Below, piece by piece: positions 5,803 to 29,211 of a stretch of 32,000 nucleotides of DNA. Position 1 is the stretch's first letter; every line of letters begins with the position of its first letter. The stretch is taken from NCBI RefSeq assembly GCF_000022265.1, contig NC_011979.1:3240001-3272000 (forward strand). Reading direction: 5' to 3'. The stretch comes from Geotalea daltonii FRC-32. GTDB lineage: Bacteria > Desulfobacterota > Desulfuromonadia > Geobacterales > Geobacteraceae. Under the pieces are notes generated by a model, which was not told the origin of the DNA, did no database searches, and saw nothing but the letters and a program-made list of their open reading frames with translations. The position numbers were made by a program, and so were the translations under genes.

Positions 5803-5803
5803 T

Positions 5804-7011: not shown

Positions 7012-7857
7012 TCACCAGGCATACTGCTTATGCTGATAATAATCGTGATAATGCCCGTTGAGGTTCTCATTCACCGTTTCGTTGTAAACGATCCCCAACA
7101 GATTGCTCTTATCCAAGGCGGTCAGCGCATCGTTGACTTCCTTGACGCTGGCAGCCCCTTCCTTGACCACAAACACGATCCCGTCGACAATGGTGCTGAT
7201 GGTGCGGGTTTCGGCAAAAAGCAGCACCGGCGGCGTATCGATGATTATATAACGGTCAGGGTAACGGCTTTTGATCTCGGCTATCAGGCTCTTCATCTTC
7301 GACGAGGAGAACAGCTCACCCGGATTCTCCACCTTTTTCCCGTAGGGCAGGATCGACAGTTTTCCTATGCCGGTCTTGATCAGCGTCTCCCCCACATCGA
7401 TTCCCCTGGTGAGACAATCGGTAAGACCCAGTTTCGGCTCGAAACCGAAATATTTATGAATTGAAGGTTTTCTCAGGTCTGCATCCACCAGGAGCACCGT
7501 ATGGTCGAATTCCTGGGCCAGACTCACGGCCAGATTTATTGCCGTTATGCTCTTCCCCTCGCTGGCAAAGGCACTGGTAACCATGAGGGTATTCCTGAAC
7601 CGGTCGCCGTTGGTGAGCTTGACCAGAAGGGACTTCAGCTTTCGGTATTCTTCAGCCACGGACGTCTGCGGTGCGGTAACGCTTACCACCAGCGGATTTT
7701 TCACCTTCAGCCTTTCATTGGGCATCGGCTGCTGATAAGCATGCACAGATCCATGGGCAACGGCCAATGGCGAGCCGGGCACTTTGCCCAGGGCTGCTTT
7801 GCCATCCGTACCCCGCATTTTCGCCGCTTTCTCCAGTGCTTCTTCTATTCTGCTCAT
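7012..7857 (-). CDS. Bacterial tyrosine (BY) autokinase, EpsG/Wzc C-terminal-domain type
   Basis: P-loop VTSAFASEGKS, Walker A' LLVDADLRKP and Walker B IIIDTPPV. The C-terminal tail is Tyr-rich (GHYHDYYQHKQYAW). Confidence 0.8.
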   Translation of the reverse strand: MSRIEEALEKAAKMRGTDGKAALGKVPGSPLAVAHGSVHAYQQPMPNERLKVKNPLVVSVTAPQTSVAEEYRKLKSLLVKLTNGDRFRNTLMVTSAFASEGKSITAINLAVSLAQEFDHTVLLVDADLRKPSIHKYFGFEPKLGLTDCLTRGIDVGETLIKTGIGKLSILPYGKKVENPGELFSSSKMKSLIAEIKSRYPDRYIIIDTPPVLLFAETRTISTIVDGIVFVVKEGAASVKEVNDALTALDKSNLLGIVYNETVNENLNGHYHDYYQHKQYAW

Positions 7858-7894
7858 AAAATTTCCTCTCCTGTTTGGCTTTCTCCGTAACCTT

Positions 7895-9397: not shown

Positions 9398-9486
9398 AAC
9401 AACTCCATATGACTTATTTTATTTACCTACCCCTCTCAATCCACCCTGTTCCATAGGGAGGAAGCGAACGTAAGTGGCAGGGGTAA

Positions 9487-10368
9487 TCAAAACATGCCTT
9501 CTTTGACTATTATATAATCGCCAGGTTTCAGTTTTATGTTTTGTGCCAGATCTCCATCCATTATCAAATCCTTTGCTTTGATGGATATGGTTACATCTTT
9601 CTTGCCGTTCTTTCTCAGTATCGATGTATCATTCAGTTTGGCAAACCGGGTAAAACCGCCCGATTCAAGAACAGCTTCCATGACTGTCATTCCCTCCCGG
9701 TACTCGATGACGCGCGGAGCATTGACTGCCCCAAGCACATAGATGTTCTTATCCAGAAGCTGCGGAATAAATACGGCGTCGTTACTCTCTATGATCATAT
9801 CTTCGCCCACATCCCCGTCCACGAATAGTTTATGAAAATCCTGCTTTATCTTTGCCCCGTTCCGCAACACGTACGCGTTCTTGTAGTCGGCAACCCTTGA
9901 GTTGGCAGCAACTCCTCCACCCCCTTGGCCCCTGGCTACCGGGCCGGGCGCAGCGCCAGGACCTGAATTGCCGATGGCGCAGAGCAACTGCAGCAGGGTC
10001 GTCCGCCGGTTCAGATCGAAAACGCCGGAACTTACCCCACCGCCAAATACATAGACCTTGCTGTTGGTGATTTCCCGCACCGCCACCGAGACGATCGGGT
10101 TTTTCACCAGGGACTTGAATTTGACCGCCAGGGTTGACTGTAACTCCTTGGGGGTCACACCGGATGCGGTGACGTCGCCAAGACCGGGAATAGTAATTTT
10201 CCCGTCGGGCCTTACCCGCACCGATACGTTAAGGTCCCTCACCCCCCATACGGAAATGTCCAGGCCATCCCCCTCCCCTATGACATAATCTCCGGCAAAC
10301 ACGCACAGGGGCAGTAACATCAGAACTGTCAGTACAAAAGCCGTCAATCCCATACATCGTTTTGTCAT
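9487..10368 (-). CDS. Periplasmic polysaccharide export protein (Wza/EpsE-like: Poly_export + SLBB)
   Basis: Signal peptide, then the DYVIGEGDGLDISVWG Poly_export signature, then an SLBB-like C-terminal half (IYVLGAVNAPRVIEY...). Its ATG overlaps the sugar transferase stop (ATGA at 10365..10368). It contains a Gly/Pro-rich insert (see findings). Confidence 0.85.
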   Translation of the reverse strand: MTKRCMGLTAFVLTVLMLLPLCVFAGDYVIGEGDGLDISVWGVRDLNVSVRVRPDGKITIPGLGDVTASGVTPKELQSTLAVKFKSLVKNPIVSVAVREITNSKVYVFGGGVSSGVFDLNRRTTLLQLLCAIGNSGPGAAPGPVARGQGGGGVAANSRVADYKNAYVLRNGAKIKQDFHKLFVDGDVGEDMIIESNDAVFIPQLLDKNIYVLGAVNAPRVIEYREGMTVMEAVLESGGFTRFAKLNDTSILRKNGKKDVTISIKAKDLIMDGDLAQNIKLKPGDYIIVKEGMF

Positions 10369-11726
10369 CTTCCACCTCGCCTGAAAAGAACCACCTTTAT
10401 TGTCTCCAGGATGATCATCAGATCGAAAATAAGGGTCAGGTTCTTGATATAGTAAAGGTCGTACCTGAGCTTTTCTATGGCATCATCAACTGACGCACCG
10501 TAGGGATAGCTGACCTGCGCCCATCCTGTGACCCCCGGTTTGACAAAATGCCTGCTGGAATAGTAGGGAATGATCTCCTTCAGTTTCTCCACGAATTCCG
10601 GGCGCTCGGGTCTGGGGCCCACCAGGCTCATGGAACCTCCCAGCACGTTGAAAAGCTGGGGGATCTCATCGATCCTGCTTTTGCGGAGAAATTCACCTGT
10701 TCTCGTCACCCTCGGGTCGTCCTTGCTGGCCCAGACCGCACCGGTCCCTTTCTCCGCATCGGCCTTCATGGTCCTGAACTTGTAGATGGTAAACGGCTTT
10801 TCCCTGGCCCCCACCCGCTGCTGCCTGAACAGGACCGGCCCTGGAGAATCAAGCTTGATCAGGAGCACGATGATTGGCAAAAAAGGGAGGAACGCCAGCA
10901 GAATGAGCGCTGCGCAGACTATATCCACTACCCTTTTCAGGATACGCAGAAGTATGGTGACCCTGAATCCCTGGGAGAATATGAACCAGCTGGGAGTGAT
11001 ATTCTCCAGAAGCAGCTTTCCCGTCATCTGCTCGTAGAAAGAGGGAGCATCCACCACCTCTATGCCGCTGAATTTGCAGGTCAGGACTTCCTGCAGGGGA
11101 AATATGCCTCTCCGTTCGGACAGGGAAATGACGATCTTGTGTGCCCGTGAATTCTTCACCCTTTCGTAAAGTTGGACAGACAGGGCAGGAATCTCTGCCG
11201 ATGTTTGATCGAATATCTCACTGGTGCAGTCCACATAGCCGGAAAGAACATAGTTCTGATTACCAGCGGTGATGAGCCCGCCGATCTGCCTTGCCAGAGG
11301 GCCGGTCCCGAGCACCAGCACCCTTCTGGCAAAGGCTGAGAACCTGGAGCTCAGATAACAGAGATAATGCCAGGCCAGCTGCAAAGACCCGAACAGCACC
11401 AGCGCCAGCACCAGCATCCACCCTCCATACATATGGAGTGGCTGAAAATGGTAGATCACCGACAACACGAAAAATGAAAAAATGACCGATGTGCCTATAC
11501 GGACGGCACTTTCCTTGCCACCGAGAAACCTGTTCAGGTAGTAAATCTCCACCAGGAAAGAAGAAAACAGGGAGGTAAAAATAAAGATAATTACCCTTAC
11601 CAGGTGGATCTCGCCCAGCTCCTCACTTGCCGGCAGAAACCCGTAAAGGGCGTAATGGGCCAGGATCAGAGCAAGACATGCCGCTACCGCATCCCCGGTT
11701 ATCAAGATTAGGACCCTTTTGACCAT
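10365..11726 (-). CDS. Polyprenyl-phosphate glycosyl-1-phosphate (priming) sugar transferase, EpsB/WbaP-like
   Basis: 453 aa with N-terminal TM helices. The C-terminal bacterial sugar-transferase domain shows KRVVDIVCAALILL..., DSPGPVLFRQQRVG, FTIYKFRTM, DEIPQLFNVLGGSMSLVGPRP. Confidence 0.9.
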   Translation of the reverse strand: MVKRVLILITGDAVAACLALILAHYALYGFLPASEELGEIHLVRVIIFIFTSLFSSFLVEIYYLNRFLGGKESAVRIGTSVIFSFFVLSVIYHFQPLHMYGGWMLVLALVLFGSLQLAWHYLCYLSSRFSAFARRVLVLGTGPLARQIGGLITAGNQNYVLSGYVDCTSEIFDQTSAEIPALSVQLYERVKNSRAHKIVISLSERRGIFPLQEVLTCKFSGIEVVDAPSFYEQMTGKLLLENITPSWFIFSQGFRVTILLRILKRVVDIVCAALILLAFLPFLPIIVLLIKLDSPGPVLFRQQRVGAREKPFTIYKFRTMKADAEKGTGAVWASKDDPRVTRTGEFLRKSRIDEIPQLFNVLGGSMSLVGPRPERPEFVEKLKEIIPYYSSRHFVKPGVTGWAQVSYPYGASVDDAIEKLRYDLYYIKNLTLIFDLMIILETIKVVLFRRGGR

Positions 11727-11729
11727 GAG

Positions 11730-13529
11730 CTAATTCCTTTTTTCAGACCTGCGCAACTGGGCAAGTATGTTTTTTGCCTGGTCCTGTTCGGGGAATTTTC
11801 CCAGCTGAAGGGCCTTCTTCAGCTTCAATCCGGCCTGGACTTCATTTCCGGTTTCCATGAGGGCTAAAGCCAGATGATACTGGGCATAGCCATTATTCGG
11901 CAGTCTCTCGGCCGCCTTTTGCAATAGTTCGAGGGCATGGGGCTTTTGCCCGTTTTTGAGCAGAACGTAACCAAGGGTTTCCATCACGGCAGGATTGGAG
12001 GGTTGAAGCTTGTATGCCCTCATGGCCAGACGTTCGGCCTCACTGAGGCTGCCATAACCGTCGGCATAGAGACAGGCCAGATTATTCAGCGCCTGGACAT
12101 AGTTTTCCGACTTTTCCAGGGCTGCCCGGTATTTTGCCGCCGCCTCTTTCTTTTGTCCCGACTGGTCCAGCAATACCCCCTGTGCGTACAATGCAGGAGC
12201 ATAGTCGGGTTTGTTCCGCGCCGCTTCGGTAAATGCTGCCATGGCTGCCTTGTTGTCCTTGTTTCCTGCATTCAGATCACCCAGTATCATCAGGGTTTCA
12301 ATATTCCATTGATCCCCTTCGCCCCCTCTTTTCAACATATCGCCGGTGGCTGTCGGACCCAGGCCGGTCGCTGCCTTGAGTTCCCTCACTCCCTCTTCAT
12401 TCATCCCCTTCGCCAGATATCCCCTGCCGAGGACGTTATGGGCAAAGGCATGGCCTGGGTCAATCTGCAAGACCTTCCGGATTTCACCGATAGCATCATC
12501 GGCCCGCCCCTGCCTGAGAAGTATCAAGCTGTTGAGGACGCGAGCCTGGACAAATGACGGGTTATAATCGATTATTCTTCTGAACTGGCTGAGGGCATTC
12601 TCCAGTTCACCATGGCAATAGAGGCTAAGCCCGAGAAAGTAATACCCTTCCATGGATGGTTGTTTTTTCAGGGATTCCTGCAAAAGTGCGATAGCTTCCG
12701 TGTAATTCTTCGTATAGTACTGGACAAGCCCCTGCAACCGGCTCCCCTCACCCTTGTCCGGAAAGGTTTTCACCAGGTAAGCTGCCAGTTTCCGGGCCTT
12801 TTCCACATCATGCTTGTCCAGATAGACAAGGCCCATTTTGTAAGGTGCAACCGGGTCGGCCTTATCGAAACCGGCAATCTGCTGATACAGCTCAAGGGCT
12901 CTGTCGCTGTTGCCCATGGTATTCTCAAGTGCTGCCATAAGGTAGCAGGCCTTGCTGTTTTTCGGCTCCATGGCCAGTGTTTCCTCAAGCTGCCGCCTTG
13001 CTTCCGGGTGCTTCCGCCAGGCCATGTAGATACCTGCAAGGGCAAGTTTTACGCCGGTGTTTTTTGTGTCCCCCTGCATGGATTGCAGCAGGTAGCGTTC
13101 GGCCTGTTCAAGGTTTTTCTGCAGGGCATAGCTTTCTCCGATCAAGCCCAGCGCCTCTGCGGTACGGCCATTGCTTTTCAGGTATTCTTCAACTTCGGCA
13201 CGGGCCTGTTCAGGCTTTCCCATGGTGTTGTAAAGCCTTGCCAGGTCCAGATGTACCGTACTTTTTGCAGGATTTTGCTCCAGTACCTGCAGGAACTCCT
13301 TTTCCGCCTGTTCGTGCTTGTTGGCCTTCACATAAGCCAAAGCCAGCTGATATCGCGCACTCAGATACTCGGGATCCTTTTCCAGGGCATTCTTCAACAA
13401 CACTATCGCGCCGCCGGCGTTGCCTTTGCCGATCTGACTGATTCCCTCGGCATATAGCTCTTCCTTTGCCTTGCTGCTGCAACCGGGCAAGATGAAGATT
13501 AAGACGAGCAACACGAGAAACTTTAGCAA
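11730..13529 (-). CDS. TPR-repeat lipoprotein (PrsT-like, PEP-CTERM system-associated)
   Basis: TPR repeats run throughout. The track start at 13586 is a TTG with no SD. The in-frame TTG at 13529 is preceded by GGAGGA (13542..13537, 7-nt spacer). It yields an ideal lipoprotein signal peptide, MLKFLVLLVLIFILPG|CSS. Confidence 0.75.
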   Translation of the reverse strand: MLKFLVLLVLIFILPGCSSKAKEELYAEGISQIGKGNAGGAIVLLKNALEKDPEYLSARYQLALAYVKANKHEQAEKEFLQVLEQNPAKSTVHLDLARLYNTMGKPEQARAEVEEYLKSNGRTAEALGLIGESYALQKNLEQAERYLLQSMQGDTKNTGVKLALAGIYMAWRKHPEARRQLEETLAMEPKNSKACYLMAALENTMGNSDRALELYQQIAGFDKADPVAPYKMGLVYLDKHDVEKARKLAAYLVKTFPDKGEGSRLQGLVQYYTKNYTEAIALLQESLKKQPSMEGYYFLGLSLYCHGELENALSQFRRIIDYNPSFVQARVLNSLILLRQGRADDAIGEIRKVLQIDPGHAFAHNVLGRGYLAKGMNEEGVRELKAATGLGPTATGDMLKRGGEGDQWNIETLMILGDLNAGNKDNKAAMAAFTEAARNKPDYAPALYAQGVLLDQSGQKKEAAAKYRAALEKSENYVQALNNLACLYADGYGSLSEAERLAMRAYKLQPSNPAVMETLGYVLLKNGQKPHALELLQKAAERLPNNGYAQYHLALALMETGNEVQAGLKLKKALQLGKFPEQDQAKNILAQLRRSEKRN

Positions 13530-13684
13530 AACCGAATCCTCCAGCCATGGATTGTGAACAGTATTTCGCCTTACCGGAAAGTCCAATGTGATCTGGGCGG
13601 TTTACTCGAGGACTCCTCAGGGACCAAACCCGTGCGGGGGACCAGCAAGTTAATTATTTTTCTATTATTTAAATAGCTTAATTT

Positions 13685-13712
13685 AATTTACCGCAGCACG
13701 GTGCGATGTCAA
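13685..13712 (-). promoter_or_regulatory. Candidate sigma70 promoter for the EPS operon
   Basis: Minus strand reads TTGACA (13712..13707), N16, TAAATT (13690..13685), inside an AT-rich stretch about 155 nt upstream of the TPR lipoprotein start. Confidence 0.3.
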
Positions 13713-13910
13713 GGCAGATCAAAGGAAAAGAATAAGGATGACAGAGGGTGTTTTGATAAGGATTTGAGAGAGGAAAATGGCTATGGCAGCCCACAGGCCA
13801 ATTTTAATAATGGGGGGTTACACGAGTAAGGAGAAGATTGCGGCACAATGGGGAGATTTTCCCCTCACTATTCGTAGGGGGAATTTCCTGGAGAGATGCA
13901 AGGTTGCAGT

Positions 13911-14408
13911 TCAACGGGTAGTGTCTTTTATTTCCTGTCCCGAGCTTACAAAGGAGATGCCTTGTCCGGACTTCATGCCGATCATCACGCTTTCTATGAC
14001 AGGAACATTTACTTCTTTCTGCGAAGTCCATCTGACGATAAAATTGGCGCCAGTACCGCCCGTTGTATCCTCCTCAGGAATAAAAATATCCGTTGACTCC
14101 AAAGGTCCGAGGGTTACTGGTTGTTGGTAGTATTTTCTCACCAACCTACCCTTTGTATCATAGTAATCCGCAGCAACAATTTTGATAGGATTCCACATAT
14201 CCGTATTCCTGATACTTAAAATAGTTGCCAGATTGAATGGAATCTTTTTTGGGGCGCTGAAGATATTGGAATAGACGGGCACATATAAGATTTGTCCTTT
14301 TGAAGCCCTGTATTCTGTTCCTGCAAACGCGATTTGGCCAATAGACAAAAGCATGACAAGTAATATACAGATGGTAAGTAATTTGTTGCACTGACATCGG
14401 TATGTCAT
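13911..14408 (-). CDS. Secreted DUF3124-like protein
   Basis: The preferred ATG at 14408 is preceded by AGGAG with a 6-nt spacer and gives the signal peptide MTYRCQCNKLLTICILLVMLLSIGQIAFAG. Motifs GQILYVPVYSNIF, LATILSIRNTD, YYDTKGRL, GGTGANFIVRW and VIESVMIG...GQGISFVSSG match my memory of the DUF3124 family. Confidence 0.65.
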   Translation of the reverse strand: MTYRCQCNKLLTICILLVMLLSIGQIAFAGTEYRASKGQILYVPVYSNIFSAPKKIPFNLATILSIRNTDMWNPIKIVAADYYDTKGRLVRKYYQQPVTLGPLESTDIFIPEEDTTGGTGANFIVRWTSQKEVNVPVIESVMIGMKSGQGISFVSSGQEIKDTTR

Positions 14409-14457
14409 AAGAGTCTCCTGATATCTCATTTTATGGATACAGAGCCGGATCAATTTG

Positions 14458-14889
14458 TCAGTTTCTACTTTCAAAAAGATAGTCAAAATCATCGATATAT
14501 TGAATGCCGTTGATTTTCCATGTATTCAAGGGTTTATAGAAGGTGAAACGCCAAAGCAGCGAGTGGTTCTCGAATTTATGCAGATAATAATAGCGAACGA
14601 AGGATTTTCCTATACTCTCTTCTCTCACAAATTCTTTGCCGGTAGCCTTTCCGAAACGTTGTTGAACCACCGGCCATTGGGTTGCTATTTGATTTGCAAG
14701 CCCGTCTATTTCCACTTCCGGCAGAGGCCAGAATGGTTTGGCCAGCTCCAGCCCCTTTTTGAAGTCAGCCTTGATAAAGTAACCGACGATATTTTCAGAC
14801 AGTTCCTTAGCTTCCTTTGTCGTTTGCAGCTCGCCTGCCAGAGAAAACTGCGGGATCAGCCACAATAAAACGAAAATAATTTTTCTCAT
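14458..14889 (-). CDS. Small secreted protein of unknown function
   Basis: The track start at 14892 is a GTG. The ATG at 14889 follows GGAGAG. The signal peptide is MRKIIFVLLWLIPQFSLA|GE. I recognise no family. It is AT-rich and lies 49 nt upstream of the DUF3124-like gene on the same strand. Confidence 0.55.
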   Translation of the reverse strand: MRKIIFVLLWLIPQFSLAGELQTTKEAKELSENIVGYFIKADFKKGLELAKPFWPLPEVEIDGLANQIATQWPVVQQRFGKATGKEFVREESIGKSFVRYYYLHKFENHSLLWRFTFYKPLNTWKINGIQYIDDFDYLFESRN

Positions 14890-14945
14890 CACACTCTCCA
14901 GGTCTCTTTAACGAGATGTGAATACAACTTTTCCAACACGGGCGC

Positions 14946-14974
14946 ACTATATAACTACCGTCCATTCTTGTCAA
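14946..14974 (-). promoter_or_regulatory. Candidate sigma70 promoter for the two small secreted-protein genes
   Basis: Minus strand reads TTGACA (14974..14969), N17, TATAGT (14951..14946), about 55 nt upstream of the ATG at 14889. Confidence 0.4.
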
Positions 14975-15295
14975 AGGTGAAACACCAGATATTGGATGCA
15001 GGTCCGCCAAACACGGGCATTGCTGGACATCGTCCGTGTTGCTTTTTTACAGATTCAATTTCGCGGAACCTGTGGGTAGAGGGTAGAAAAAATTAGAGCA
15101 TTGCTGGTTATCTTCCTGTTGTTCAAAGCGAATGTGAGGTTTTCTACGATTCAATCATGTCAGCCTTCGGGCGGCAAGGTACGTCATGGGGGGTCCGGAG
15201 ACATTGCCCTTTGCCCCGCCCCCCCCAATTATCGGGACTTGACGGCCCATAAGCCGGATTTGTGCGCGTAATTATCCAGCACCACAAATTGATGC

Positions 15296-15325
15296 TTGAC
15301 AATTTATAATTACGACAATTATATT
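15296..15325 (+). promoter_or_regulatory. Candidate sigma70 promoter for the S8 protease gene
   Basis: TTGACA (15296..15301), N18, TATATT (15320..15325). The alternative is N17 with TTATAT. The region is AT-rich and about 165 nt upstream of the ATG at 15492. Confidence 0.35.
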
Positions 15326-15491
15326 AACCATTCTTAAATACCTCCCGTTATTCTTCATACCATCCCCTTATTTTTGATTGTTCCACCTAAACCGTTACTG
15401 CCGGCTGCATCAAATTACCCAAAAGATTCATAGTTCGTTGTGTTGACGCTTGTTATTTTCTGCAGCAGCAAAAAAAACAGAGGAGGATGCA

Positions 15492-18400
15492 ATGTACAGG
15501 TACAGGCTAAGCAGGATGCTGGGATTGTTGTTGCCGGTATTGATCATTCTTGGCGGGGTGGGAATCTCACACGCCCAGAACCGAGTGCAGATCAACGGTT
15601 ACAACTTCGACCTGAAAGAAGGAGAACCTTCCGTTCCGGCAGTACTCGATACTGCGGACGAGCAGGAGCCTGACAAGGGACCGCCAGAGAACGGACGGCA
15701 GAAAAAAAGAAGCGACAGAAAGTGGATCGTTCAGTTCGACGGCCCAGTGCATGAGGCAGACAAGAAGCAATTGGCCGAACTTGGAGCCCGAATCGGAGAT
15801 TATGTCCCCGATTTCGCATTTATCGTCAGCATGGACAATAAGACGACAAATGAGGTGAAAAAGCTACCCTTCGTAAGCGGTGTCGTGCGGTACAAGCCCG
15901 CTTACAAGATTCACCAGAATCTCAAGGACGAGAGCGGTGAGCTGAGAGTACAAAAAGGAAAGAAGGTAAAGCTTCATATCAAGCTGGACAGCAAGGAAAA
16001 TCAATCACAGGTATTGTCCATTGTTCATGGGAAGAAAGGAAAAGTCCTCGATGTAAGCGGCGATTTGCTCCGGGTGGAGGTAAACCAGGAGGATATTGCC
16101 CAGTTGGCCCAGATCGAAGAAGTGCTTTCCGTCGAAGAAGCAACTGATCTTCAGCTCCTTAATGACACCTCCAAATGGGTCATACAGACCTACACTTCGA
16201 ATAATACCAAGATATGGGACCATGGGCTCCACGGAGAAGGCCAGATCGTGGGCATCGGCGACAGTGGGATCGACTACGACATGCCCTGGTTCCGTGATCC
16301 GGCAGGGACAACCATCGGGCCTATGCACCGGAAGGTCGTCGGTTACGATCCGACCTACGGCGATGATTACGATTCCAACTCCGGTCATGGAACCCATGTG
16401 GCCGGCTCTGTGGGTGGCGACCGTACCCCCGTCGACGGCCTTGCAAACGCTAACGGCATGGCCCCCAAATCCAGGTTCTTTCTCCAGGATATCAGCCCCG
16501 GTGAAACAAGGTATGTCTACCCACCTTCAGACTTGGGTCTCATGTTCATAACTGCGTATAACGCAGGCGCCAGGCTTCATACCAACAGTTGGGGGGGCGG
16601 CGGCAGTTCCTATAATGCAGCTGCAATGAGCGTCGACCGCTTCATGTGGGAACATAAAGACTTCCTGGCCCTTTTCGCCAATGGTAACGCCGGTCCCGGA
16701 GTCGGCAGTGTGGGATACCCGGCTTCAGCCAAGAGCGTTGTCAGCGTCGGGGCCACGGAAAATGGAACAGGTGCAGAAAATATCGCCTCCTTCAGCTCAA
16801 ATGGCCCCACTGCAGACGGCCGCATCAAGCCAACAATAACAGCGCCGGGAGTCAATATCATCTCGGCTGACTCCGACGGAATCAAAAACAGCAACAACAG
16901 CGGCACCCTCTCCTATAGCGGTACTTCCATGGCCACTCCCACGGTGGCTGGAGCAGCGGCATTGGTCAGGCAGTATTACACCGAAGGTTTCTACCCAGGG
17001 GGAGCGGCCAATTCTGCTAATGCCTTCACACCCTCAGCCGCCCTCATCAAGGCAACCCTGGTGAACAGCGGCCAGAACATGAGCGGCAGTAACACCGACG
17101 ACGTGATCCCTTCCAGCGGTCAAGGGTGGGGAAGGATCAATATTTCAAAAACCCTCAGCTTCAGCGGTGACGCGAATACGCTTGAAGTCCTGGACAATAA
17201 CACCGGATTGGCCACCGGCGAAAGCTGGAGTCAGCCCTACTTTGTCACCGGCGACCATGCCCTGAAGGCGACCCTTGTCTGGACAGACTATCCCGGTGCA
17301 GTAGGCGCCGCAAAGGCGCTCGTCAACGATCTGGACCTGACAATTACGGCACCAGACGGGACCACATATACCGGGAACGTCTTCTCCAACGGCGAATCAG
17401 CGGCCGGCGGCAATGCCGACAGGCTGAACGTGGAAGAGCAGATCCTCATCAAAGCGCCGAATAAAGGCACCTATACCATCACCATCAGCGGGTATAACAT
17501 TCCGAACGGGCCACAACCGTTCGCCCTTGTCCTTACCGGCGCTTCCGGGGTAACCTCCAAAGGGATGATCAGTCTCAACAAGAACAGGTACAACGCAGCC
17601 GGCACCGTAGAGATAAAGGTGGCCGACCTCGACCTCAATAGCGACAGCACAACACTTCAGGAAGTATATGTAAACATAAAGAGCGACACGGAGCAGGCAG
17701 GCGAGCGTGTGAGACTTGTTGAAACCACCCCCGACTCGTCAGTCTTTACCGGCACGGTCGGCCTCAGGCTCGGTGCTCCGGCCTCAAACAACGGTTATCT
17801 TGAGGTAATCGGGGGCAACACCGTTACCGGTACCTATGAGGACGCCAACGACGGTACTGGGTCTCCGGCCACGGCAACCGCTACGGCCCTGATCGATATC
17901 ACCCCCCCGGTCATATCGTCGGTAACCGTTGATTCCATATCCGATATCGGTGCAACAGCCGCATGGCTGACAGACGAACCGGCCGATTCTACCATTAACT
18001 ACGGTGAAACAGGCGCCCTCGGCTCCTATAAATCCGACTTCAAACTGTCAACCCAGCATGGTATCGGCCTTGGAAACCTCAAAGAAGCCAAGACCTACTA
18101 CTATGAGCTTTATTCGACCGACGAGGCCGGAAACCTTGTAAAAAGCGACAACGGCGGAAGACTATACAGCTTCACCACGGCAAACGTTCCACCGGAACTG
18201 ACCGCCAACTCCTCGAACGGCTATGACACGTATCTCCCCGAGTCGAACATATACGGGACTGCGACCGACCATTCCGGAATCGCCTCGATTACGGTCAACG
18301 GGACGGAAGCCACTTACCGTTCAAGCGACGGATATTATGAACTGGCGGTTCCACTGACACTGGGAATGAATAACTTCACCGTCATTGCCACCGATACTCT

Positions 18401-21400
18401 CGGTAATGCGCAAACGACGGGTGTGAGTATTAATCGTCTCCAGCCCCCCGACCTGGTGATGCAGACAATCGCTGGTCCTCCGACAGCGGGAACAGGAGCC
18501 TCGGCTGCCATAACCGATACCGTGTGCAATATCGGGGTGGGAAACTCAAATGCCTTTTCGTTAGGATTATACCTTTCATCCGACAACAGTATTGCCACAA
18601 GCGATACACGCGTTGGCAGCCGGTCAGTAGCTTCTCTTGCAGCAGGACAATGTTCTTCGGGGACGACCACCGTAACTCTTAACGGCAGCATGGGGAGTTA
18701 CTATGTCGGCGCGATAGCAGATTACGCCAATGTACAGTACGAGGCCGATGAGACCAACAACAGCCTGGCAGGAAACCTGCTTGAACTGCGAGGTCCCGAC
18801 TTGGTGGTAACCTCAGTATCCGGTCCGACCGTCATCGACACCGATACCGACAGCACGCCACCGGCAACCGTCGTGGTCAAAGTAAAAAATATCGGGGAAG
18901 GCAGGGCGTCCAACACCTTCCTGGTCCGTCCCTACCTCTCGACTGACAACGCGATCACCACGGCCGATACTTCCCTGGGTGCCCAGTACATCTACGGTCT
19001 GGCCGCAGGGGAAGAGGTAACACTGACCTTCACCACCACCATTCCCCGTGGAGCCGGGGGTGCCACACCCTATTACTTCGGAGCCATAACCGACACCGGC
19101 AACGCCAATACCGAGATTGACGAAGCCAACAATGCTCTTGCCGGAAACCTGGTTACGGTCAACCGCACCCAGGTGACTCCCGATCTCGTCGTCACTTCCG
19201 TTGCCGGTCCGACCGTCATCGATACCGATACCGACAGCACGCCACCGGCAACCGTCACCGTCAAAGTCAAGAACAGCGGTAACGGCAGGGCATGGAACAC
19301 CTTCCTGGTCCGTCCCTACCTCTCGGCTGACAACGCGATCACCACGGCCGATACTTCCCTGGGTGCCCAGTACATCTACGGTCTGGCCGCAGGGGAAGAG
19401 GTAACACTGACCTTCACCACCACCATTCCCCGTGGAGCCGGGGGTGCCACACCCTATTACTTCGGAGCCATAACCGACACCGGCAACGCCAATACCGAGA
19501 TTGACGAAGCCAACAATGCTCTTGCCGGAAACCTGGTTACGGTCAACCGCACCCAGGTGACTCCCGATCTCGTCGTCACTTCCGTTGCCGGTCCGACCGT
19601 CATCGATACTGATACCGACAGCACGCCACCGGCAACCGTCACCGTCAAAGTCAAGAACAGCGGTAACGGCAGGGCATGGAACACCTTCCTGGTCCGTCCC
19701 TACCTCTCGGCTGACAACGCGATCACCACGGCCGACACTTCCCTGGGTGCCCAGTACATCTACGGTCTGGCCGCAGGGGAAGAGGTAACACTGACCTTCA
19801 CCACCACCATTCCCCGTGGAGCCGGGGGTGCCACACCCTATTACTTCGGAGCCATAACCGACACCGGCAACGCCAATACCGAGATTGACGAAGCCAACAA
19901 TGCTCTTGCCGGAAACCTGGTTACGGTCAACCGCACCCAGATGACTCCCGATCTCGTCGTCACTTCCGTTGCCGGTCCGACCGTCATCGATACCGATACC
20001 GACAGCACGCCACCGGCAACCGTCACCGTCAAAGTCAAGAACAGCGGTAACGGCAGGGCATGGAACACCTTCCTGGTCCGTCCCTACCTCTCGACTGACA
20101 ACGCGATCACCACGGCCGATACTTCCCTGGGTGCCCAGTACATCTACGGTCTGGCCGCAGGGGAAGAGGTAACACTGACCTTCACCACCACCATTCCCCG
20201 TGGAGCCGGGGGTGCCACACCCTATTACTTCGGAGCCATAACCGACACCGGCAACGCCAATACCGAGATTGACGAAGCCAACAATGCTCTTGCCGGAAAC
20301 CTGGTTACGGTCAACCGCACCCAGGTGACTCCCGATCTCGTCGTCACTTCCGTTGCCGGTCCGACCGTCATCGATACTGATACCGACAGCACGCCACCGG
20401 CAACCGTCACCGTCAAAGTCAAGAACAGCGGTAACGGCAGGGCATGGAACACCTTCCTGGTCCGTCCCTACCTCTCGACTGACAACGCGATCACCACGGC
20501 CGATACTTCCCTGGGTGCCCAGTACATCTACGGTCTGGCCGCAGGGGAAGAGGTAACACTGACCTTCACCACCACCATTCCCCGTGGAGCCGGGGGTGCC
20601 ACACCCTATTACTTCGGAGCCATAACCGACACCGGCAACGCCAATACCGAGATTGACGAAGCCAACAATGCTCTTGCCGGAAACCTGGTTACGGTCAACC
20701 GCACCCAGGTGACTCCCGATCTCGTCGTCACTTCCGTTGCCGGTCCGACCGTCATCGATACCGATACCGACAGCACGCCACCGGCAACCGTCACCGTCAA
20801 AGTCAAGAACAGCGGTAACGGCAGGGCATGGAACACCTTCCTGGTCCGTCCCTACCTCTCGGCTGACAACGCGATCACCACGGCCGATACTTCCCTGGGT
20901 GCCCAGTACATCTACGGTCTGGCCGCAGGGGAAGAGGTAACCCTGACCTTCACCACCACCATTCCCCGTGGAGCCGGGGGTGCCACACCCTATTACTTCG
21001 GAGCCATAACCGACACCGGCAACGCCAATACCGAGATTGACGAAGCCAACAATGCTCTTGCCGGAAACCTGGTTACGGTCAACCGCACCCAGGTGACTCC
21101 CGATCTCGTCGTCACTTCCGTTGCCGGTCCTTTGAGCGCAAACACAGGTCAGATGGTACCTGTGACCCTGAAAGTCAAGAACGCCGGTAACGGCAGGGCA
21201 TGGAACACCTTCCTGGTCCGTTCCTACATCTCGGCTGACAATGAAATCACCACGGCCGATACTTCCCTGGGTGCCCAGTACATCTATGGTCTGGCCGCAG
21301 GGGAAGAGACAACCATAACCATTAACGGAACTGTCCCTTCAACCTTTGTATCCGGCACCTACTATTTCGGTGGGATAGCCGACACAGGCAACGCCAACGC

Positions 21401-21461
21401 AGAGCTCAACGAAACTAATAACGCTCTTGCAGGCAATGAAATTGTCATTACCAAACTCTAG
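15492..21461 (+). CDS. Giant secreted subtilisin-like serine protease (peptidase S8) with I9-like propeptide, P-domain-like beta-sandwich, Fn3/Ig-like modules and a C-terminal array of eight CARDB-type domains
   Basis: The start at 15492 follows GGAGG with a 5-nt spacer and gives the signal peptide MYRYRLSRMLGLLLPVLIILGGVGISHA|Q. The catalytic triad motifs are GIGDSGID (Asp codon 16260..16262), SGHGTHVAG (His 16386..16388) and SGTSMATP (Ser 16926..16928), with oxyanion region ANGNAG. The CARDB signature PDLVVTSV...VKVKN.G...LAAGE...E.DE.NN is repeated. Confidence 0.9.
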   Translation: MYRYRLSRMLGLLLPVLIILGGVGISHAQNRVQINGYNFDLKEGEPSVPAVLDTADEQEPDKGPPENGRQKKRSDRKWIVQFDGPVHEADKKQLAELGARIGDYVPDFAFIVSMDNKTTNEVKKLPFVSGVVRYKPAYKIHQNLKDESGELRVQKGKKVKLHIKLDSKENQSQVLSIVHGKKGKVLDVSGDLLRVEVNQEDIAQLAQIEEVLSVEEATDLQLLNDTSKWVIQTYTSNNTKIWDHGLHGEGQIVGIGDSGIDYDMPWFRDPAGTTIGPMHRKVVGYDPTYGDDYDSNSGHGTHVAGSVGGDRTPVDGLANANGMAPKSRFFLQDISPGETRYVYPPSDLGLMFITAYNAGARLHTNSWGGGGSSYNAAAMSVDRFMWEHKDFLALFANGNAGPGVGSVGYPASAKSVVSVGATENGTGAENIASFSSNGPTADGRIKPTITAPGVNIISADSDGIKNSNNSGTLSYSGTSMATPTVAGAAALVRQYYTEGFYPGGAANSANAFTPSAALIKATLVNSGQNMSGSNTDDVIPSSGQGWGRINISKTLSFSGDANTLEVLDNNTGLATGESWSQPYFVTGDHALKATLVWTDYPGAVGAAKALVNDLDLTITAPDGTTYTGNVFSNGESAAGGNADRLNVEEQILIKAPNKGTYTITISGYNIPNGPQPFALVLTGASGVTSKGMISLNKNRYNAAGTVEIKVADLDLNSDSTTLQEVYVNIKSDTEQAGERVRLVETTPDSSVFTGTVGLRLGAPASNNGYLEVIGGNTVTGTYEDANDGTGSPATATATALIDITPPVISSVTVDSISDIGATAAWLTDEPADSTINYGETGALGSYKSDFKLSTQHGIGLGNLKEAKTYYYELYSTDEAGNLVKSDNGGRLYSFTTANVPPELTANSSNGYDTYLPESNIYGTATDHSGIASITVNGTEATYRSSDGYYELAVPLTLGMNNFTVIATDTLGNAQTTGVSINRLQPPDLVMQTIAGPPTAGTGASAAITDTVCNIGVGNSNAFSLGLYLSSDNSIATSDTRVGSRSVASLAAGQCSSGTTTVTLNGSMGSYYVGAIADYANVQYEADETNNSLAGNLLELRGPDLVVTSVSGPTVIDTDTDSTPPATVVVKVKNIGEGRASNTFLVRPYLSTDNAITTADTSLGAQYIYGLAAGEEVTLTFTTTIPRGAGGATPYYFGAITDTGNANTEIDEANNALAGNLVTVNRTQVTPDLVVTSVAGPTVIDTDTDSTPPATVTVKVKNSGNGRAWNTFLVRPYLSADNAITTADTSLGAQYIYGLAAGEEVTLTFTTTIPRGAGGATPYYFGAITDTGNANTEIDEANNALAGNLVTVNRTQVTPDLVVTSVAGPTVIDTDTDSTPPATVTVKVKNSGNGRAWNTFLVRPYLSADNAITTADTSLGAQYIYGLAAGEEVTLTFTTTIPRGAGGATPYYFGAITDTGNANTEIDEANNALAGNLVTVNRTQMTPDLVVTSVAGPTVIDTDTDSTPPATVTVKVKNSGNGRAWNTFLVRPYLSTDNAITTADTSLGAQYIYGLAAGEEVTLTFTTTIPRGAGGATPYYFGAITDTGNANTEIDEANNALAGNLVTVNRTQVTPDLVVTSVAGPTVIDTDTDSTPPATVTVKVKNSGNGRAWNTFLVRPYLSTDNAITTADTSLGAQYIYGLAAGEEVTLTFTTTIPRGAGGATPYYFGAITDTGNANTEIDEANNALAGNLVTVNRTQVTPDLVVTSVAGPTVIDTDTDSTPPATVTVKVKNSGNGRAWNTFLVRPYLSADNAITTADTSLGAQYIYGLAAGEEVTLTFTTTIPRGAGGATPYYFGAITDTGNANTEIDEANNALAGNLVTVNRTQVTPDLVVTSVAGPLSANTGQMVPVTLKVKNAGNGRAWNTFLVRSYISADNEITTADTSLGAQYIYGLAAGEETTITINGTVPSTFVSGTYYFGGIADTGNANAELNETNNALAGNEIVITKL
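18447..21458 (+). repeat. Array of eight CARDB-encoding modules (divergent copy 0, six 384-bp tandem copies, divergent terminal copy 7)
   Basis: Each module begins with a P-D-L-V motif. The starts are at 18447, 18795, 19179, 19563, 19947, 20331, 20715 and 21099. Confidence 0.9.
18795..21098 (+). repeat. Six in-frame tandem repeats of 384 bp (128 aa); copies 2-6 are nearly identical
   Basis: The spurious ORFs in the track recur at exactly 384-nt spacing (19073, 19457, 19841, 20225, 20609). By eye I find only five variable positions among copies 2-6: 19226-type C/T, 19326-type G/A, 19736, 19941 and 20942. The near-perfect tract runs about 18912..21130. Confidence 0.95.
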
Positions 21462-25987: not shown

Positions 25988-26686
25988 ATGACGAACCAGA
26001 AAAACGGCTTGCCGCGAATACTTATTGTTGACGATGAACCTGCAATCCAGCGATTTCTTCAGACCGCGCTCGATACGGGTGAATTCAGCCTCCACAAAGC
26101 TGACGACGGCCACTCGGCACTGGCTGCGGCAGTGGCGACGCGGCCTGACATTATCCTTCTCGACCTGGGGCTTCCGGATATGGACGGGGTCGAGGTGATC
26201 CGGCGGGTGAGGGAATGGTCTCAGGTACCTATTATCGTATTGTCGGTGCGGGAGCGGGAAGATGACAAGGTAAAGGCGCTGGATGCAGGGGCGGATGATT
26301 ATGTGACCAAACCCTTCGGTATCCCTGAACTCCTGGCACGCATGCGTGTAGCTCTGCGGCGTTCTTTGCAGGAGGTGGTGGAACCGGTATTCAGGAGCGG
26401 CGGCCTGGAAGTGGATTTACATCTACGGAAGGTGAAGGTGCAGGAAGAGGATGTACAGGTAACTCCGACGGAATATGATCTCCTGCGTCTGCTGGTCACA
26501 CACGCGGGCAGAGTTCTTACCCATGCCCACCTCCTGAAACAGATCTGGGGCGTAGGTTATGTGGAACAGCCGCATGTCCTGCGCGTAAACATAAGCAATC
26601 TGAGGCATAAGATAGAGAAGGACCCCTCACGCCCACGGTATATCATCACAGAACCGGGTGTCGGCTACCGGTTGAAGATTCAATGA
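25988..26686 (+). CDS. kdpE: OmpR-family response regulator, KdpE-like
   Basis: The receiver domain shows RILIVDDEP, IILLDLGLPDMDG and DDYVTKPF. The winged-helix output shows LTPTEYDLLRLL and PRYIITEPGVGYRL. Confidence 0.85.
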   Translation: MTNQKNGLPRILIVDDEPAIQRFLQTALDTGEFSLHKADDGHSALAAAVATRPDIILLDLGLPDMDGVEVIRRVREWSQVPIIVLSVREREDDKVKALDAGADDYVTKPFGIPELLARMRVALRRSLQEVVEPVFRSGGLEVDLHLRKVKVQEEDVQVTPTEYDLLRLLVTHAGRVLTHAHLLKQIWGVGYVEQPHVLRVNISNLRHKIEKDPSRPRYIITEPGVGYRLKIQ

Positions 26687-26752: not shown

Positions 26753-29026
26753 CTACTGTGCCAGAGTGGCTTCAAGGGTGCGGCCGGTGGATATGTCCGT
26801 ATCCAGGACCTGAATGACCTGCTTCCTGCCGTTGCTGGCAATCTGGGGCGGCTCTATGGCCCCGGTTGTACCGGGGTCGTTCTTTCGGGGATATAACAGC
26901 CTGAATGTGGCCATGCCGTGTCGGTCAAAATATTTTTCGTTATTATAGACAAAGACACGTCCCTGATTGGTCTCAATGGGTTGCGAAAGGTTTACCATTG
27001 CGCCAGGAACCCCTCTTACGTTGACTCTGGCACCTTCTACCTTTTCAAATATCTTCAGGCGCTTGATTTCCCAGGGGAAGCCGCCAACCGATGCTGGTGA
27101 ATCGGATTCGTAAACCAGCCTGACCCCTTCGACCGGCTGGAATTGTATGCCGGCTGCCTCGGCAAGGCTCCCGTCAGCAAAGAAAAGACGAGAAGAAATC
27201 AGGGAAAATGTTTCAGGTGCCGGTAGATACTCTGTCTTTTTAACCTGGGGATTCCACCTTTCCACAAAGAATTGCGAATTGTTACCGATCAGCTTCGCAT
27301 ACATGGGAAGATCACCAAGAATTTTATCAATAATGATATATCGAACCCTGTTTCGTTCCAGAACCTTGTGCAGCTCATCTTCATCCTTAGTCAAAAGGAA
27401 TCTGGCCACTTCCTCCATGCCATAGGTTTCCGTGCCGTAATTGGTTGCAATGGAAGGACGTAGGGCAATGGATTCCACCCACCCCCCATAATCCCAGCGA
27501 GCCATTACACCGTAAGCCGGCTTTGTAGACGGACGGTAAGGATCGCCAGGTGAAGGCGTATTGTCTCTCAGCCAGAGCATGGTATCTTCAATATCCCCTT
27601 TTATATTGAAGACACCGCCGGTTCTATACAGGTTGCTGAAATATGCGAAGGTAGGAATCTGCAGACAGAGCAGAACTGCCACAGCACCGGAACTTCTCAT
27701 GACGGCACGTCGGCTGTCTCCGATGGAGTGGCAATAGTAGATGATCATGCCGGCCAATATGGAGACATTTAAAGTCAGATATTCAGCATACCTGTTCCGG
27801 CCGATAGTTGAGACCACCATAACCAGCGTCCAAAGGATCAAGAAGCGTTTCCACTTCATCCCATTGAAAGAGGTGCTCGGCAAAAGGAAAAGGGCAAACG
27901 GAGCCAGAAGGGAAAGAATACCGAAAGATTTTAACCATTTTGAGATGTGGCTTGAGCGCTGGTATTGGGAGATGCTGTCAATCCATGCATTGCCGCCACC
28001 TATCACTTTCAGTCCTTCACCGATGTGTGTACCGAATAAAACAAGCATCAATCCAAAGAAAACCGCTGCGACACATACGTATTTTATAATCTTTTGCCTG
28101 TCCAGCTTGTTGCTCCCCGCACATTGGTAAAGCAGAAAGAACGGGACTCCGGCACAGACAAAAAGCGCCACATGGAACCAGGAAACAATATTCCAGCTGA
28201 ACATTCCCCCTGTTCCCCACATATCAGTAATGCAGATCAAACCCAGGATGGCTGCCGCTGTTAAATACATCAATCCGGCACCCTTCCCCAAATCCTTTAG
28301 CCTGTCCACATCACCGCGGTGAAGAAATACCTGCAGGACCAGATCCACACCTATGATAGACAAGGGAAAGAGAGCACCACGCCAAGCCATCAGATAAACT
28401 GCGCTCAAGACACCCAAGCCTGACCAGTAACGAAGGTTTTTCCGGTTGTTGCAGGAGACGATGTAGAGCCAGAACGTCACCATCAGAAGTAAAGGTTCAA
28501 TCATTTCGTTGTCGAAACGACCCAGAATGGTTGCTTCAACATGTTTGGGATGAAGAGCCAGGACCAAGCCGGAACATAAAGCGGCTGCCCTACCCCACCA
28601 ACCTTTAACGAAAAAGTACATTACAACGGCAGTTACGGCACCGATAAGGGAAGGAGCCAGGGCAACGGCTCTCCCCAGCTGAGTAATGAAACCGGAAAAG
28701 TTGTGAAAGGGATAGCTGAAAACAGCAATGAGATACTCCATGGCCGGGGAGGAAATGACACCTGTCCCTTTGGGAAATCCCTGAAAATAGTCGTAAACAT
28801 GAGTTTGAGGAAAGGAATGAATATAAATGAGGATTTTTCTCAAGCGGATATAACAATCCGGGTCGAAGAGGTAAACCTTCCCCGAAAAAAACACATGGTG
28901 CCAGGGGAGTATTCTGGCAACCAATGCCACCAAGAATACAATGAAGGTAAAGACAATGTCGGTACCAGTAAAGGTACCTGAGAAAATCCGTCTTCTCTGT
29001 GCATTAAATTCATTAAACATTTTCAT
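26753..29026 (-). CDS. STT3/AglB/PglB-family oligosaccharyltransferase homologue (GT-C membrane protein with C-terminal periplasmic domain)
   Basis: 757 aa with about 13 TM segments. Motifs fall in the canonical order and spacing. EL1 is LFDPDCYIRLR (D55/D57). The second acidic motif is GRFDNEMIEP (D172/E174). The EL5 SVSE/TIXE-like motif is DSISQYQ (aa 351-354). The WWDYG-like motif is ARWDYGGW (aa 510-514, W codon 27494..27496). VRYIIIDK follows about 56 aa later. Confidence 0.65.
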   Translation of the reverse strand: MKMFNEFNAQRRRIFSGTFTGTDIVFTFIVFLVALVARILPWHHVFFSGKVYLFDPDCYIRLRKILIYIHSFPQTHVYDYFQGFPKGTGVISSPAMEYLIAVFSYPFHNFSGFITQLGRAVALAPSLIGAVTAVVMYFFVKGWWGRAAALCSGLVLALHPKHVEATILGRFDNEMIEPLLLMVTFWLYIVSCNNRKNLRYWSGLGVLSAVYLMAWRGALFPLSIIGVDLVLQVFLHRGDVDRLKDLGKGAGLMYLTAAAILGLICITDMWGTGGMFSWNIVSWFHVALFVCAGVPFFLLYQCAGSNKLDRQKIIKYVCVAAVFFGLMLVLFGTHIGEGLKVIGGGNAWIDSISQYQRSSHISKWLKSFGILSLLAPFALFLLPSTSFNGMKWKRFLILWTLVMVVSTIGRNRYAEYLTLNVSILAGMIIYYCHSIGDSRRAVMRSSGAVAVLLCLQIPTFAYFSNLYRTGGVFNIKGDIEDTMLWLRDNTPSPGDPYRPSTKPAYGVMARWDYGGWVESIALRPSIATNYGTETYGMEEVARFLLTKDEDELHKVLERNRVRYIIIDKILGDLPMYAKLIGNNSQFFVERWNPQVKKTEYLPAPETFSLISSRLFFADGSLAEAAGIQFQPVEGVRLVYESDSPASVGGFPWEIKRLKIFEKVEGARVNVRGVPGAMVNLSQPIETNQGRVFVYNNEKYFDRHGMATFRLLYPRKNDPGTTGAIEPPQIASNGRKQVIQVLDTDISTGRTLEATLAQ

Positions 29027-29044
29027 ATTCTTACCGCCAGACGC

Positions 29045-29096
29045 AAAAAACCCCTGAGTTCTTGACCTCCAGTGAGAGGTTTTTGAAAGTCAGGGG
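29045..29096 (-). terminator. Intrinsic terminator-like hairpin downstream of tRNA-Gly
   Basis: Minus strand reads CCCCTGA(29096..29090)...ACCTC-tcactg-GAGGT...TCAGGGG(29057..29051), followed by TTTTTT (29050..29045). Confidence 0.45.
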
Positions 29097-29136
29097 CCGT
29101 ATGCGGACACTATATATTAGTTGAAATAGTTTTTAA

Positions 29137-29211
<75 letters not shown>

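Follow-up and report, generated by a model that had tools for sequence, protein, structure and literature searches.

A bacterial AglB-type oligosaccharyltransferase homologue from Geotalea daltonii with an apparently remodelled catalytic site

Can a homologue of the oligosaccharyltransferases (OSTs) that carries a glutamine in place of the glutamate of external loop 5 (EL5) still be a functional enzyme? This question is raised by a gene for a protein of 757 amino acids, which lies in a stretch of 32,000 nucleotides of the genome of Geotalea daltonii FRC-32 (contig NC_011979.1, positions 3,240,001 to 3,272,000), in the following called the window. In the "twisted-amide" model, asparagine is activated with the help of two carboxylates, and one of these belongs to the EL5 glutamate, a residue considered universal in all three domains of life. 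A preliminary description of the window, made from the DNA letters alone, placed the open reading frame (ORF) between kdpE and a tRNA-Gly gene and recognised five motif strings in its translation. The coordinates, the strand and the flanks of the gene were all borne out, as were the places of the motifs FDPDCYIRLR (residues 54–63), FDNEMIEP (171–178), (WI)DSISQYQ (348–356), ARWDYGGW (509–516) and VRYIIIDK (561–568), and the codon CAA given for Q354 was read directly at 27967..27965 on the minus strand. The protein is already present in public databases as "STT3 domain-containing protein" and is uncharacterised. The reading to which we give an even chance of being correct is that of a functional single-subunit, AglB-L-like glycosyltransferase of the GT-C class in the bacterial inner membrane, which would have a remodelled catalytic and acceptor site and would still work by the OST mechanism.

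The assignment to the AglB/STT3 family, which is part of the OST superfamily GT66, is carried by profile searches and by the predicted fold. Three Pfam models match above their cutoffs, namely STT3 (PF02516; 59.9 bits, cutoff 24.5, E 4.2e-16), AglB_core-like (PF22627; 48.2 bits, cutoff 27, E 1.6e-12) and AglB_L1 (PF18079; 39.6 bits, cutoff 23.6, E 5.7e-10), and the L1 domain aligns with residues 770–868 of AglB-L from Archaeoglobus fulgidus (AfAglB). The sole NCBIfam match was TIGR04154 (archaeosortase A-associated OST) with 273.1 bits, which is under its cutoff of 450. With the family profile as query, AfAglB was retrieved at E 2.9e-44; mammalian STT3A (about 1e-12) and yeast Stt3 (1.4e-9) matched less well, and no PglB chain was found at E<0.01. 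The structural model, for which AlphaFold2 (AF2) was given the 33-sequence family alignment, is confident (pLDDT 88.1, pTM 0.86). Foldseek on this model returned AfAglB-L as the best match with a template-modelling score (TMq) of 0.80 at E 4e-30, followed by eukaryotic STT3 at about 0.6 and by lower matches to PglB (0.47–0.51), DPY19 (0.5–0.58) and Pmt4 (0.25, E 3e-3); ArnT was absent from the listed matches. The proposal that the protein is STT3/AglB-like rather than PglB-like holds, since AfAglB-L ranks top by profile and by fold and PglB is undetected by sequence. A best match to the ArnT/PMT type of GT-C enzymes, families GT39 and GT83, was checked as a possibility and is refuted by the low score of Pmt4 and by the PMT_2 profile, which stays below its Pfam cutoff (23.6 bits vs 26.1). 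As the profile and the fold searches find the family independently, the motif series lies far beyond chance. The protein is an AglB-L-type OST homologue with the fold of AglB-L and its domain order of transmembrane (TM) domain, core and L1.

Among 5.8 billion proteins 33 homologue clusters were found, with identities of 32–95% across the set, and a repeat of the word-index search starting from the family alignment gave the same 33 proteins. These 33 sequences form the core family in the following, whereas the wide comparison refers to a MAFFT alignment of 171 representatives. The 185,579 species genomes contain nine loci, which belong to G. toluenoxydans, two other Geobacter, a Myxococcota metagenome-assembled genome (MAG) and "Deltaproteobacteria" MAGs. 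An exhaustive profile search resulted in 1387 representatives at E<=1e-30, which are full-length with about 750 amino acids and whose scores fall smoothly from 1128 to 280 bits; judged by these scores the window family stands at the end of a continuous series of proteins of this length. Two representatives that are named as Halobacteriota archaeosortase A-associated OSTs (P0081 and P0111) share only about 24% identity with the window protein.

The residues that are predicted to form the metal and the lipid-phosphate site, i.e., D57, D172, E174, W215 and R412, are invariant in the family. D57 is present in 30 of 30 members (D55 in 29 of 30) and aligns with D47 of AfAglB, the metal ligand and partner of the asparagine amide, and with the invariant archaeal aspartate. 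In the second acidic motif, R170, D172, N173, E174, M175 and E177 are found in all 33 members, and D172-N-E174 aligns with D161-H-H163 of AfAglB, DHH being the commonest form among the distant relatives. For AfAglB it was shown that Mn2+ is bound directly by D47, D161 and H163, and by E360 only through two water molecules (PMC8342417). The change from histidine to glutamate at position 174 brings an extra carboxylate into the site. Invariant in the family alignment are furthermore W215, R410 and R412. The counterpart of R412 in AfAglB is R426, which we take to be the conserved arginine that binds the lipid-phosphate donor.

The glutamine at position 354 had been proposed to stand at the place of the canonical EL5 glutamate, and this is supported by the wide alignment, by hhalign and by relatives that bear the glutamate. 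Column 354 of the 171-sequence alignment is glutamate in essentially all distant relatives, with the motif [ST][IV]xE[FYL]xP[LI][FL], and when the family was compared by hhalign with 12 canonical archaeal sequences, one of them named as a Halobacteriota archaeosortase A-associated OST, S351-I-S-Q354 fell on T-I-T-E. Within the core family glutamine is present in 28 of 33 members and glutamate in four, and those that keep the glutamate read SVSEYQPL or SVMEYQPLF, resembling TIAEVYPFF of AfAglB and SVSEHQP of the eukaryotic enzymes. EL5 has no conserved glutamate at another place. Q354 occupies the position of the canonical TIXE/SVSE glutamate, glutamine being the derived state. A different register, in which HMMER pairwise and profile alignments set E360 of AfAglB on S351, was rejected as a slip of three residues, the 171-sequence alignment and hhalign both giving position 354. 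A glutamine two residues after the catalytic position was noted for eukaryotic and Desulfovibrio enzymes (PMC12229607).

The state of position 354 goes along with that of other positions of the site. In the wide alignment, 45 of 46 sequences with glutamine at 354 have a second motif of the form D-N/S-E, and glutamate at 354 is accompanied by DHH (80 sequences), DQH (11) or DNN (10). In the core family, an acidic residue at position 350 together with a non-acidic one at 354 occurs in 27 members and the reverse in four, and both positions are acidic in none; two members lack an acid at both, of which P0015 has E353 and P0026 is garbled in this stretch. The core members with E354 or E353 carry asparagine or glutamine at 350, and in a neighbour-joining tree the combinations N350/E354 and N350/E353 are located at three separate positions nested in the D/Q clade. 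Residues 347–355 form nearly one helix in the AF2 model, which would put positions 350 and 354 on the same side of it. D350, which is located one helical turn before Q354, is apparently a candidate for a relocated carboxylate.

Next to EL5, the motif that faces the Ser/Thr at position +2 of the sequon is altered. The first tryptophan of WWDYG had been read as arginine, which is confirmed by the family, with R510 in 23 of 32 members beside proline in five, histidine in three and serine in one. W511 is present in 32 of 32 and D512 in 28 of 32 members, and the window family also retains Y513 and G514; in the wider radiation of proteins of about 750 residues, position 510 is tryptophan in only 12 of 171 and D512 is found in only 92 of 171. 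The survey of Q/E and R/W states in orthologues that had been recommended shows Q354 and R510 as the family states, and both residues are regarded as genuine and family-typical and not as sequencing noise. In solved OSTs, the lysine of the DK motif and WWD jointly form the Ser/Thr(+2) pocket (PMC3703281). The string VRYIIIDK does lie in the DK/MI region, as had been suggested; D567-K568 is not the DK signature, K568 being retained in just 15 of 32 family members. The conserved form of the element in this region is D572-L-P-M575-Y-A-x-L579, which contains no conserved lysine. D572 probably sits in the slot of the DK-motif lysine, and the positions 510 and 572 covary: arginine is combined with aspartate in 21 members and with another residue in two, aspartate is never found without arginine, nine members have neither, and the H510 subclade carries K572. 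Active Desulfovibrio PglBs tolerate WWDWG, NL for DK/MI and a SVIE that resembles the eukaryotic form, while the glutamate is kept (PMC12229607); a natural active variant without the first tryptophan of WWDYG was not found, though WWDWG variants exist.

With AfAglB-L (PDB 3WAJ/3WAK/5GMY/7E9S) the window protein shares the single-subunit form and an architecture of about 13 TM helices, a central core that includes the WWDYG region and the peripheral AglB_L1 domain, and the residues D57, D172, W215 and R412 match D47, D161, W215 and R426. However, the identity is about 19%, and the window protein differs from AfAglB-L and TIGR04154 by D-N-E instead of D-H-H, by RWDYG instead of WWDYG, and by the glutamine for the TIXE glutamate with an aspartate at −4. 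The archaeal DK variant is E<ins>KxxxM, whereas DLPMYAxL has neither the insertion nor the lysine, and the hosts differ in that the window protein belongs to a bacterium with undecaprenol instead of dolichol and no archaeosortase. Eukaryotic STT3 (yeast Stt3, human STT3A/B) is similar in the D-N-E motif (SYDNE in yeast), in the fold, and in the EL5 frame S-[IV]-S-x-[HY]-Q (SVSEHQ vs SISQYQ) with a glutamine two residues after the catalytic position. In contrast to the window protein, STT3 keeps the glutamate, WWDYG and DxxK, is part of a multi-subunit complex and is without the AglB_L1 domain. PglB of Campylobacter and Desulfovibrio likewise comes from bacteria, acts as a single subunit and belongs to this superfamily, but its genes stand in pgl clusters, which is never the case in the window family, and all PglBs keep the EL5 glutamate. 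Literature searches resulted neither in a characterised OST of Geobacter nor in a description of a protein N-glycosylation system in this genus.

If the protein is a functional enzyme with a remodelled site, its most likely reaction would be the transfer of a polyprenyl-phosphate-linked glycan onto proteins of the periplasm or the cell surface. D350 might supply the carboxylate that is normally given by the TIXE glutamate, acting as a compensation in a site that also would have gained a carboxylate by the change from D-H-H to D-N-E, and Q354 might keep a hydrogen-bonding role toward the acceptor amide. For AfAglB, pairing of the TIXE backbone with the sequon has been described (PMC8342417). 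Moreover, the +2 pocket would be rebuilt with R510 for the first tryptophan, paired with D572, and by this the sequon preference may differ from N-X-S/T. No dedicated glycan-assembly genes are found beside any family member, suggesting that the donor is probably borrowed from another undecaprenyl-linked pathway, which might be, e.g., an XrtA/PEP-CTERM exopolysaccharide locus or O-antigen synthesis. The enzyme looks remodelled and not dead. From the options considered at the outset the degenerate catalyst is disfavoured, and a divergent N-glycosylating OST and an OST-fold enzyme with another acceptor are not separable computationally.

Several observations weigh against a functional enzyme with a relocated carboxylate. 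A subgroup of 31–33% identity (L005–L007, P0051, P0062) has lysine or arginine at 350 together with Q354, showing that the swap rule is not universal; L005, L006 and L007 combine K350 with Q354 (VWTKTIAQYRPLLTDD) and have no carboxylate on the EL5 turn. The Fisher tests of the covariation (4e-4 and 2e-6) ignore phylogeny, and by mutual information position 350 is ranked third and position 572 fourth of about 756 partner columns, neither being first. The place of the archaeal DK lysine depends on the method: hhalign sets it on D572, HMMER on P574 and MAFFT on M575. The TIXE/SVSE glutamate is regarded as essential, and L356–F365 was critical in an alanine scan of AfAglB (PMC8342417). A published E319Q mutant of PglB was sought in the literature search and none was found. 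Finally, one "Geobacter" OST was among 24 candidates studied by Ollis et al. (2015), where it is not named among the 16 active ones and the gene is not identified.

The maintenance and the origin of the gene are reflected in its relatives. Synteny with the locus of G. toluenoxydans extends over 10.5 kb, where 94.7% of the nucleotides are identical, and in comparison with the syntenic orthologue the OST gene has a ratio of non-synonymous to synonymous substitution rates (dN/dS) of 0.175 at a dS of 0.14, the neighbours ranging from 0.009 to 0.185 (kdpD-like gene 0.185, gluQRS 0.17). The OST gene is under purifying selection. In an older draft of G. toluenoxydans JCM 15764 (L001 9938..12269) the orthologue is frameshifted and annotated as fragments of 545, 241 and 221 amino acids; it is intact with 757 amino acids in a newer assembly, and a sequencing error is a more likely cause of the frameshift than a pseudogene. 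The GC content of the OST gene is 0.484 and that of its third codon positions (GC3) 0.537, compared to 0.52–0.56 and 0.60–0.70 for most neighbours. The dip toward AT that had been pointed out for the gene is real, but it is modest, and gluQRS and ppnP have a similarly low GC3. A low GC content is expected anyway from the amino-acid composition of membrane proteins.

Pgl-like neighbours, i.e., glycosyltransferases together with a flippase, were present in none of ten distinct homologue contexts, and the OST gene is stand-alone across the whole family. Next to kdpE-OST-tRNA-Gly in the window, the contexts comprise thiC-OST-tRNA-Thr-integrase in Geobacter sp. AOG1, RACo-OST-purH in a Geobacter MAG, leuB-OST-asd and leuCD-leuB-OST in lineages just 32–45% identical to the window protein, a B12-radical-SAM gene followed by OST and multihaem cytochromes, and ExbBD-OST. 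In Geobacter sp. AOG1 (L010 10001..13938) the orthologue is followed by tRNA-Thr(CGT), a phage-type integrase and a run of small unannotated ORFs, and in G. toluenoxydans the same tRNA-Thr adjoins thiC with no OST there. The presence of the gene beside this tRNA in AOG1 and its absence there in G. toluenoxydans suggests that genes of the window type have moved between sites next to tRNA genes. The few bacterial Stt3/AglB homologues were placed inside the euryarchaeal clade, and at least two transfers from archaea to bacteria were inferred (Lombard, 2016; PMC4973528).

A search seeded with mid-distance representatives revealed a second, distinct AglB-like family in Geobacteraceae, which is encoded in G. 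toluenoxydans (WP_459815639.1), G. daltonii (ACM19784.2/WP_195892564.1), G. pelophilus (KI809_03845) and MAGs. It has the length, the Pfam architecture and the host genomes in common with the window protein, is 27% identical to it over the full length, is also uncharacterised and also stands amid housekeeping genes. In contrast to the window protein, this paralogue keeps D-H-H and the EL5 glutamate, and its WWDYG motif is more degenerate (e.g., EWGLG). Its site is conserved between purD and purE, in Geotalea beside a PpcA-like cytochrome and ResB/CcsA (L015 10001..12172). In G. pelophilus (L016 5356..12196) two AglB-like genes flank a GT2 gene and a PMT_2 GT-C gene, and the GT2 protein resembles AglJ, PpgS and dolichyl-phosphate hexose transferases below cutoff. 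A tetratricopeptide repeat protein near the G. pelophilus paralogue was considered as PrsT and rejected (110 bits vs a cutoff of 312).

Other explanations than a remodelled OST have to be weighed on these data. The protein might be an OST-fold GT-C enzyme that no longer uses the asparagine of N-X-S/T and transfers a polyprenyl-phosphate-linked sugar to another side chain, a non-sequon site, a lipid, a polysaccharide or an envelope acceptor, which we consider somewhat unlikely. Both acceptor-facing elements are changed (TIXE glutamate to glutamine, first tryptophan of WWD to arginine), a DK lysine or MI isoleucine signature is absent, and the +2 pocket is unconserved in the wider radiation, as seen from the counts for positions 510 and 512; moreover the gene cluster of the G. 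pelophilus paralogue, with its GT2 of the polyprenyl-phosphate-sugar-synthase kind and its PMT_2 gene, has a make-up that is usual for the transfer of monosaccharides to various acceptors, and the C-mannosyltransferase DPY19 is a significant fold neighbour. However, the window family retains W511, D512, Y513 and G514 and the sequon-pairing frame S-I-x-[Q/E], and the whole C-terminal architecture of AglB core and L1, which is made for peptide acceptors, is conserved. We also know of no OST-family member with an acceptor other than asparagine. Loss of a glutamate held essential for amide activation could alternatively mark an inactive pseudo-enzyme with a non-catalytic role, which binds glycan, lipid or peptide or acts as partner of the second AglB-like paralogue; this seems improbable to us. 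It would agree with the presence of the catalytically more canonical paralogue in the same genome and with the absence of the Geobacter candidate from the active enzymes named by Ollis et al. (2015). Still, the invariance of D57, D172, E174, W215 and R412 across 33 members of 32–95% identity argues for catalysis, the compensatory pattern at positions 350, 353 and 354 is hard to explain without the need for a carboxylate, and the dN/dS value indicates constraint, though constraint alone is no proof of catalysis.

An explanation from the history of the gene, namely a recently acquired horizontal passenger at a tRNA site without an integrated role in the host, appears very improbable. The neighbourhood of tRNA-Gly, and of tRNA-Thr with a phage-type integrase in AOG1, would be in line with it, as would the GC and GC3 values under those of most neighbours, the patchy distribution with nine loci in the species genomes at a different location per lineage, and the euryarchaeal transfers from which the bacterial Stt3/AglB homologues are thought to come (PMC4973528). 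On the other hand, the gene is syntenic and intact in two Geotalea species at a dS of 0.14 and under purifying selection, its flanks in the window are free of integrase genes and direct repeats, the dip in GC3 is common to gluQRS and ppnP, and the adjacency to leuB is common to lineages only 32–45% identical to the window protein, suggesting a long vertical residence. A genomic island was likewise considered and found weak, with no integrase or repeats in the window and the locus syntenic in G. toluenoxydans.

A further-reaching proposal, which we regard as decidedly unlikely, is that the OST and the paralogue between purD and purE form an unrecognised protein or envelope glycosylation system of archaeal origin in Geobacteraceae and their relatives, in which the OST fold would work without the TIXE/SVSE glutamate or a canonical +2 pocket. 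Such a system would imply an acceptor rule, or even a nucleophile, different from the asparagine of N-X-S/T, with donors coming from undecaprenyl-linked envelope pathways. A conserved glutamine for the EL5 glutamate together with compensatory-looking changes represents a natural test of the carboxylate dependence of asparagine activation, for which the natural N350/E354 homologues are ready-made variants for enzymologists. Moreover, the R510/D572 pocket could make for a single-subunit OST that prefers other sequons, a kind of enzyme actively sought for bacterial glycoengineering. Proteins of the surface and the periplasm have a central part in the extracellular electron transfer of Geobacter, and a protein N-glycosylation system is undescribed for this genus in the literature searched.

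Regarding the donor, the gene had been described as having no glycan-assembly neighbours, which applies to its immediate flanks; the window does hold a complete XrtA/PEP-CTERM exopolysaccharide locus 13 kb from the OST gene, which contains the nearest glycan genes. It encodes PrsT, a TIGR03013 polyprenyl glycosylphosphotransferase, an export protein, a chain-length determinant, a tyrosine autokinase, an ATPase, a TIGR03016 outer-membrane protein, a deacetylase, a FemAB-like protein, a DegT-type aminotransferase and a GT4, and it is a possible source of undecaprenyl-linked glycans. A functional link of the OST to the exosortase/PEP-CTERM system, by analogy with the archaeosortase A-associated AglB, was rejected, as an XrtA locus is located within 10 kb in no other homologue context. 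The terminal GT4 gene of the XrtA locus (83..1348) has a GC content of 0.41 vs about 0.52 for the rest. The coordinates of the features are collected in Table 1.

Table 1. Features of the oligosaccharyltransferase gene and its surroundings, in window coordinates.
Feature	Position	Strand	Basis
AglB/STT3-family GT-C glycosyltransferase gene (putative OST), 757 aa, ATG start	26753..29026	-	ORF, Pfam, AF2, Foldseek, dN/dS
EL1 first acidic motif, D55-P-D57	28856..28864	-	column counts, alignment to AfAglB
Second acidic motif, D172-N173-E174 (eukaryote-like D-N-E for archaeal D-H-H)	28505..28513	-	
EL5 motif, W348-I-D350-S-I-S-Q354-Y-Q356	27959..27985	-	codons, column counts, hhalign, covariation
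R410-N-R412 (predicted lipid-phosphate site)	27791..27799	-	GRNRY aligned with AfAglB GQNRF; R412 = AfAglB R426
R510-W-D-Y-G514, variant of the WWDYG Ser/Thr(+2)-pocket motif	27485..27499	-	aligned with AfAglB WWDYG
D572-L-P-M575-Y-A-K-L579, conserved element of the DK/MI (kinked-helix) region	27290..27313	-	column counts
C-terminal AglB_L1 peripheral beta domain, aa 665-750	26777..27034	-	PF18079; beta strands in AF2 model
Hairpin with trailing U6 run, in the spacer between tRNA-Gly and the OST gene	29044..29098	-	by eye and folding
tRNA-Gly(GCC), directly upstream of the OST gene, same strand	29137..29211	-	ARAGORN; Rfam 71.9 bits
kdpE, one flank of the OST gene	25988..26686	+	
XrtA/PEP-CTERM exopolysaccharide locus, complete	83..13586	-	nine NCBIfam models above cutoff

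The spacer of 110 nucleotides between tRNA-Gly and the OST start codon (29027..29136, minus strand) contains a strong compound hairpin with a folding free energy of −31.8 kcal/mol and a z-score of −3.2, whose U-run stops about 17 nucleotides short of the ATG of the OST gene. A weak promoter-like site, TTAAAA-16-TATAGT at 29136..29109 (minus strand), is found ahead of the hairpin. The hairpin may be either the terminator of the tRNA or a leader attenuator for the OST gene. On the side of kdpE, the segment 22015..26686 holds a KdpD-like sensor kinase of 661 amino acids (Usp, DUF4118, GAF, HisKA, HATPase) and KdpE, which adjoin the Kup potassium transporter; kdpFABC genes are absent from the window. 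Between the exopolysaccharide locus and kup, a secreted-type S8 subtilase of 2003 amino acids with eight CARDB domains is encoded at 15450..21461 (plus strand), which could be a candidate surface protein or glycoprotein. A patch of low GC content (0.41–0.45) at 13500..15500 comprises a gene for a DUF3124 protein (13911..14492, minus strand) and an unannotated ORF of 144 amino acids (14458..14892, minus strand).

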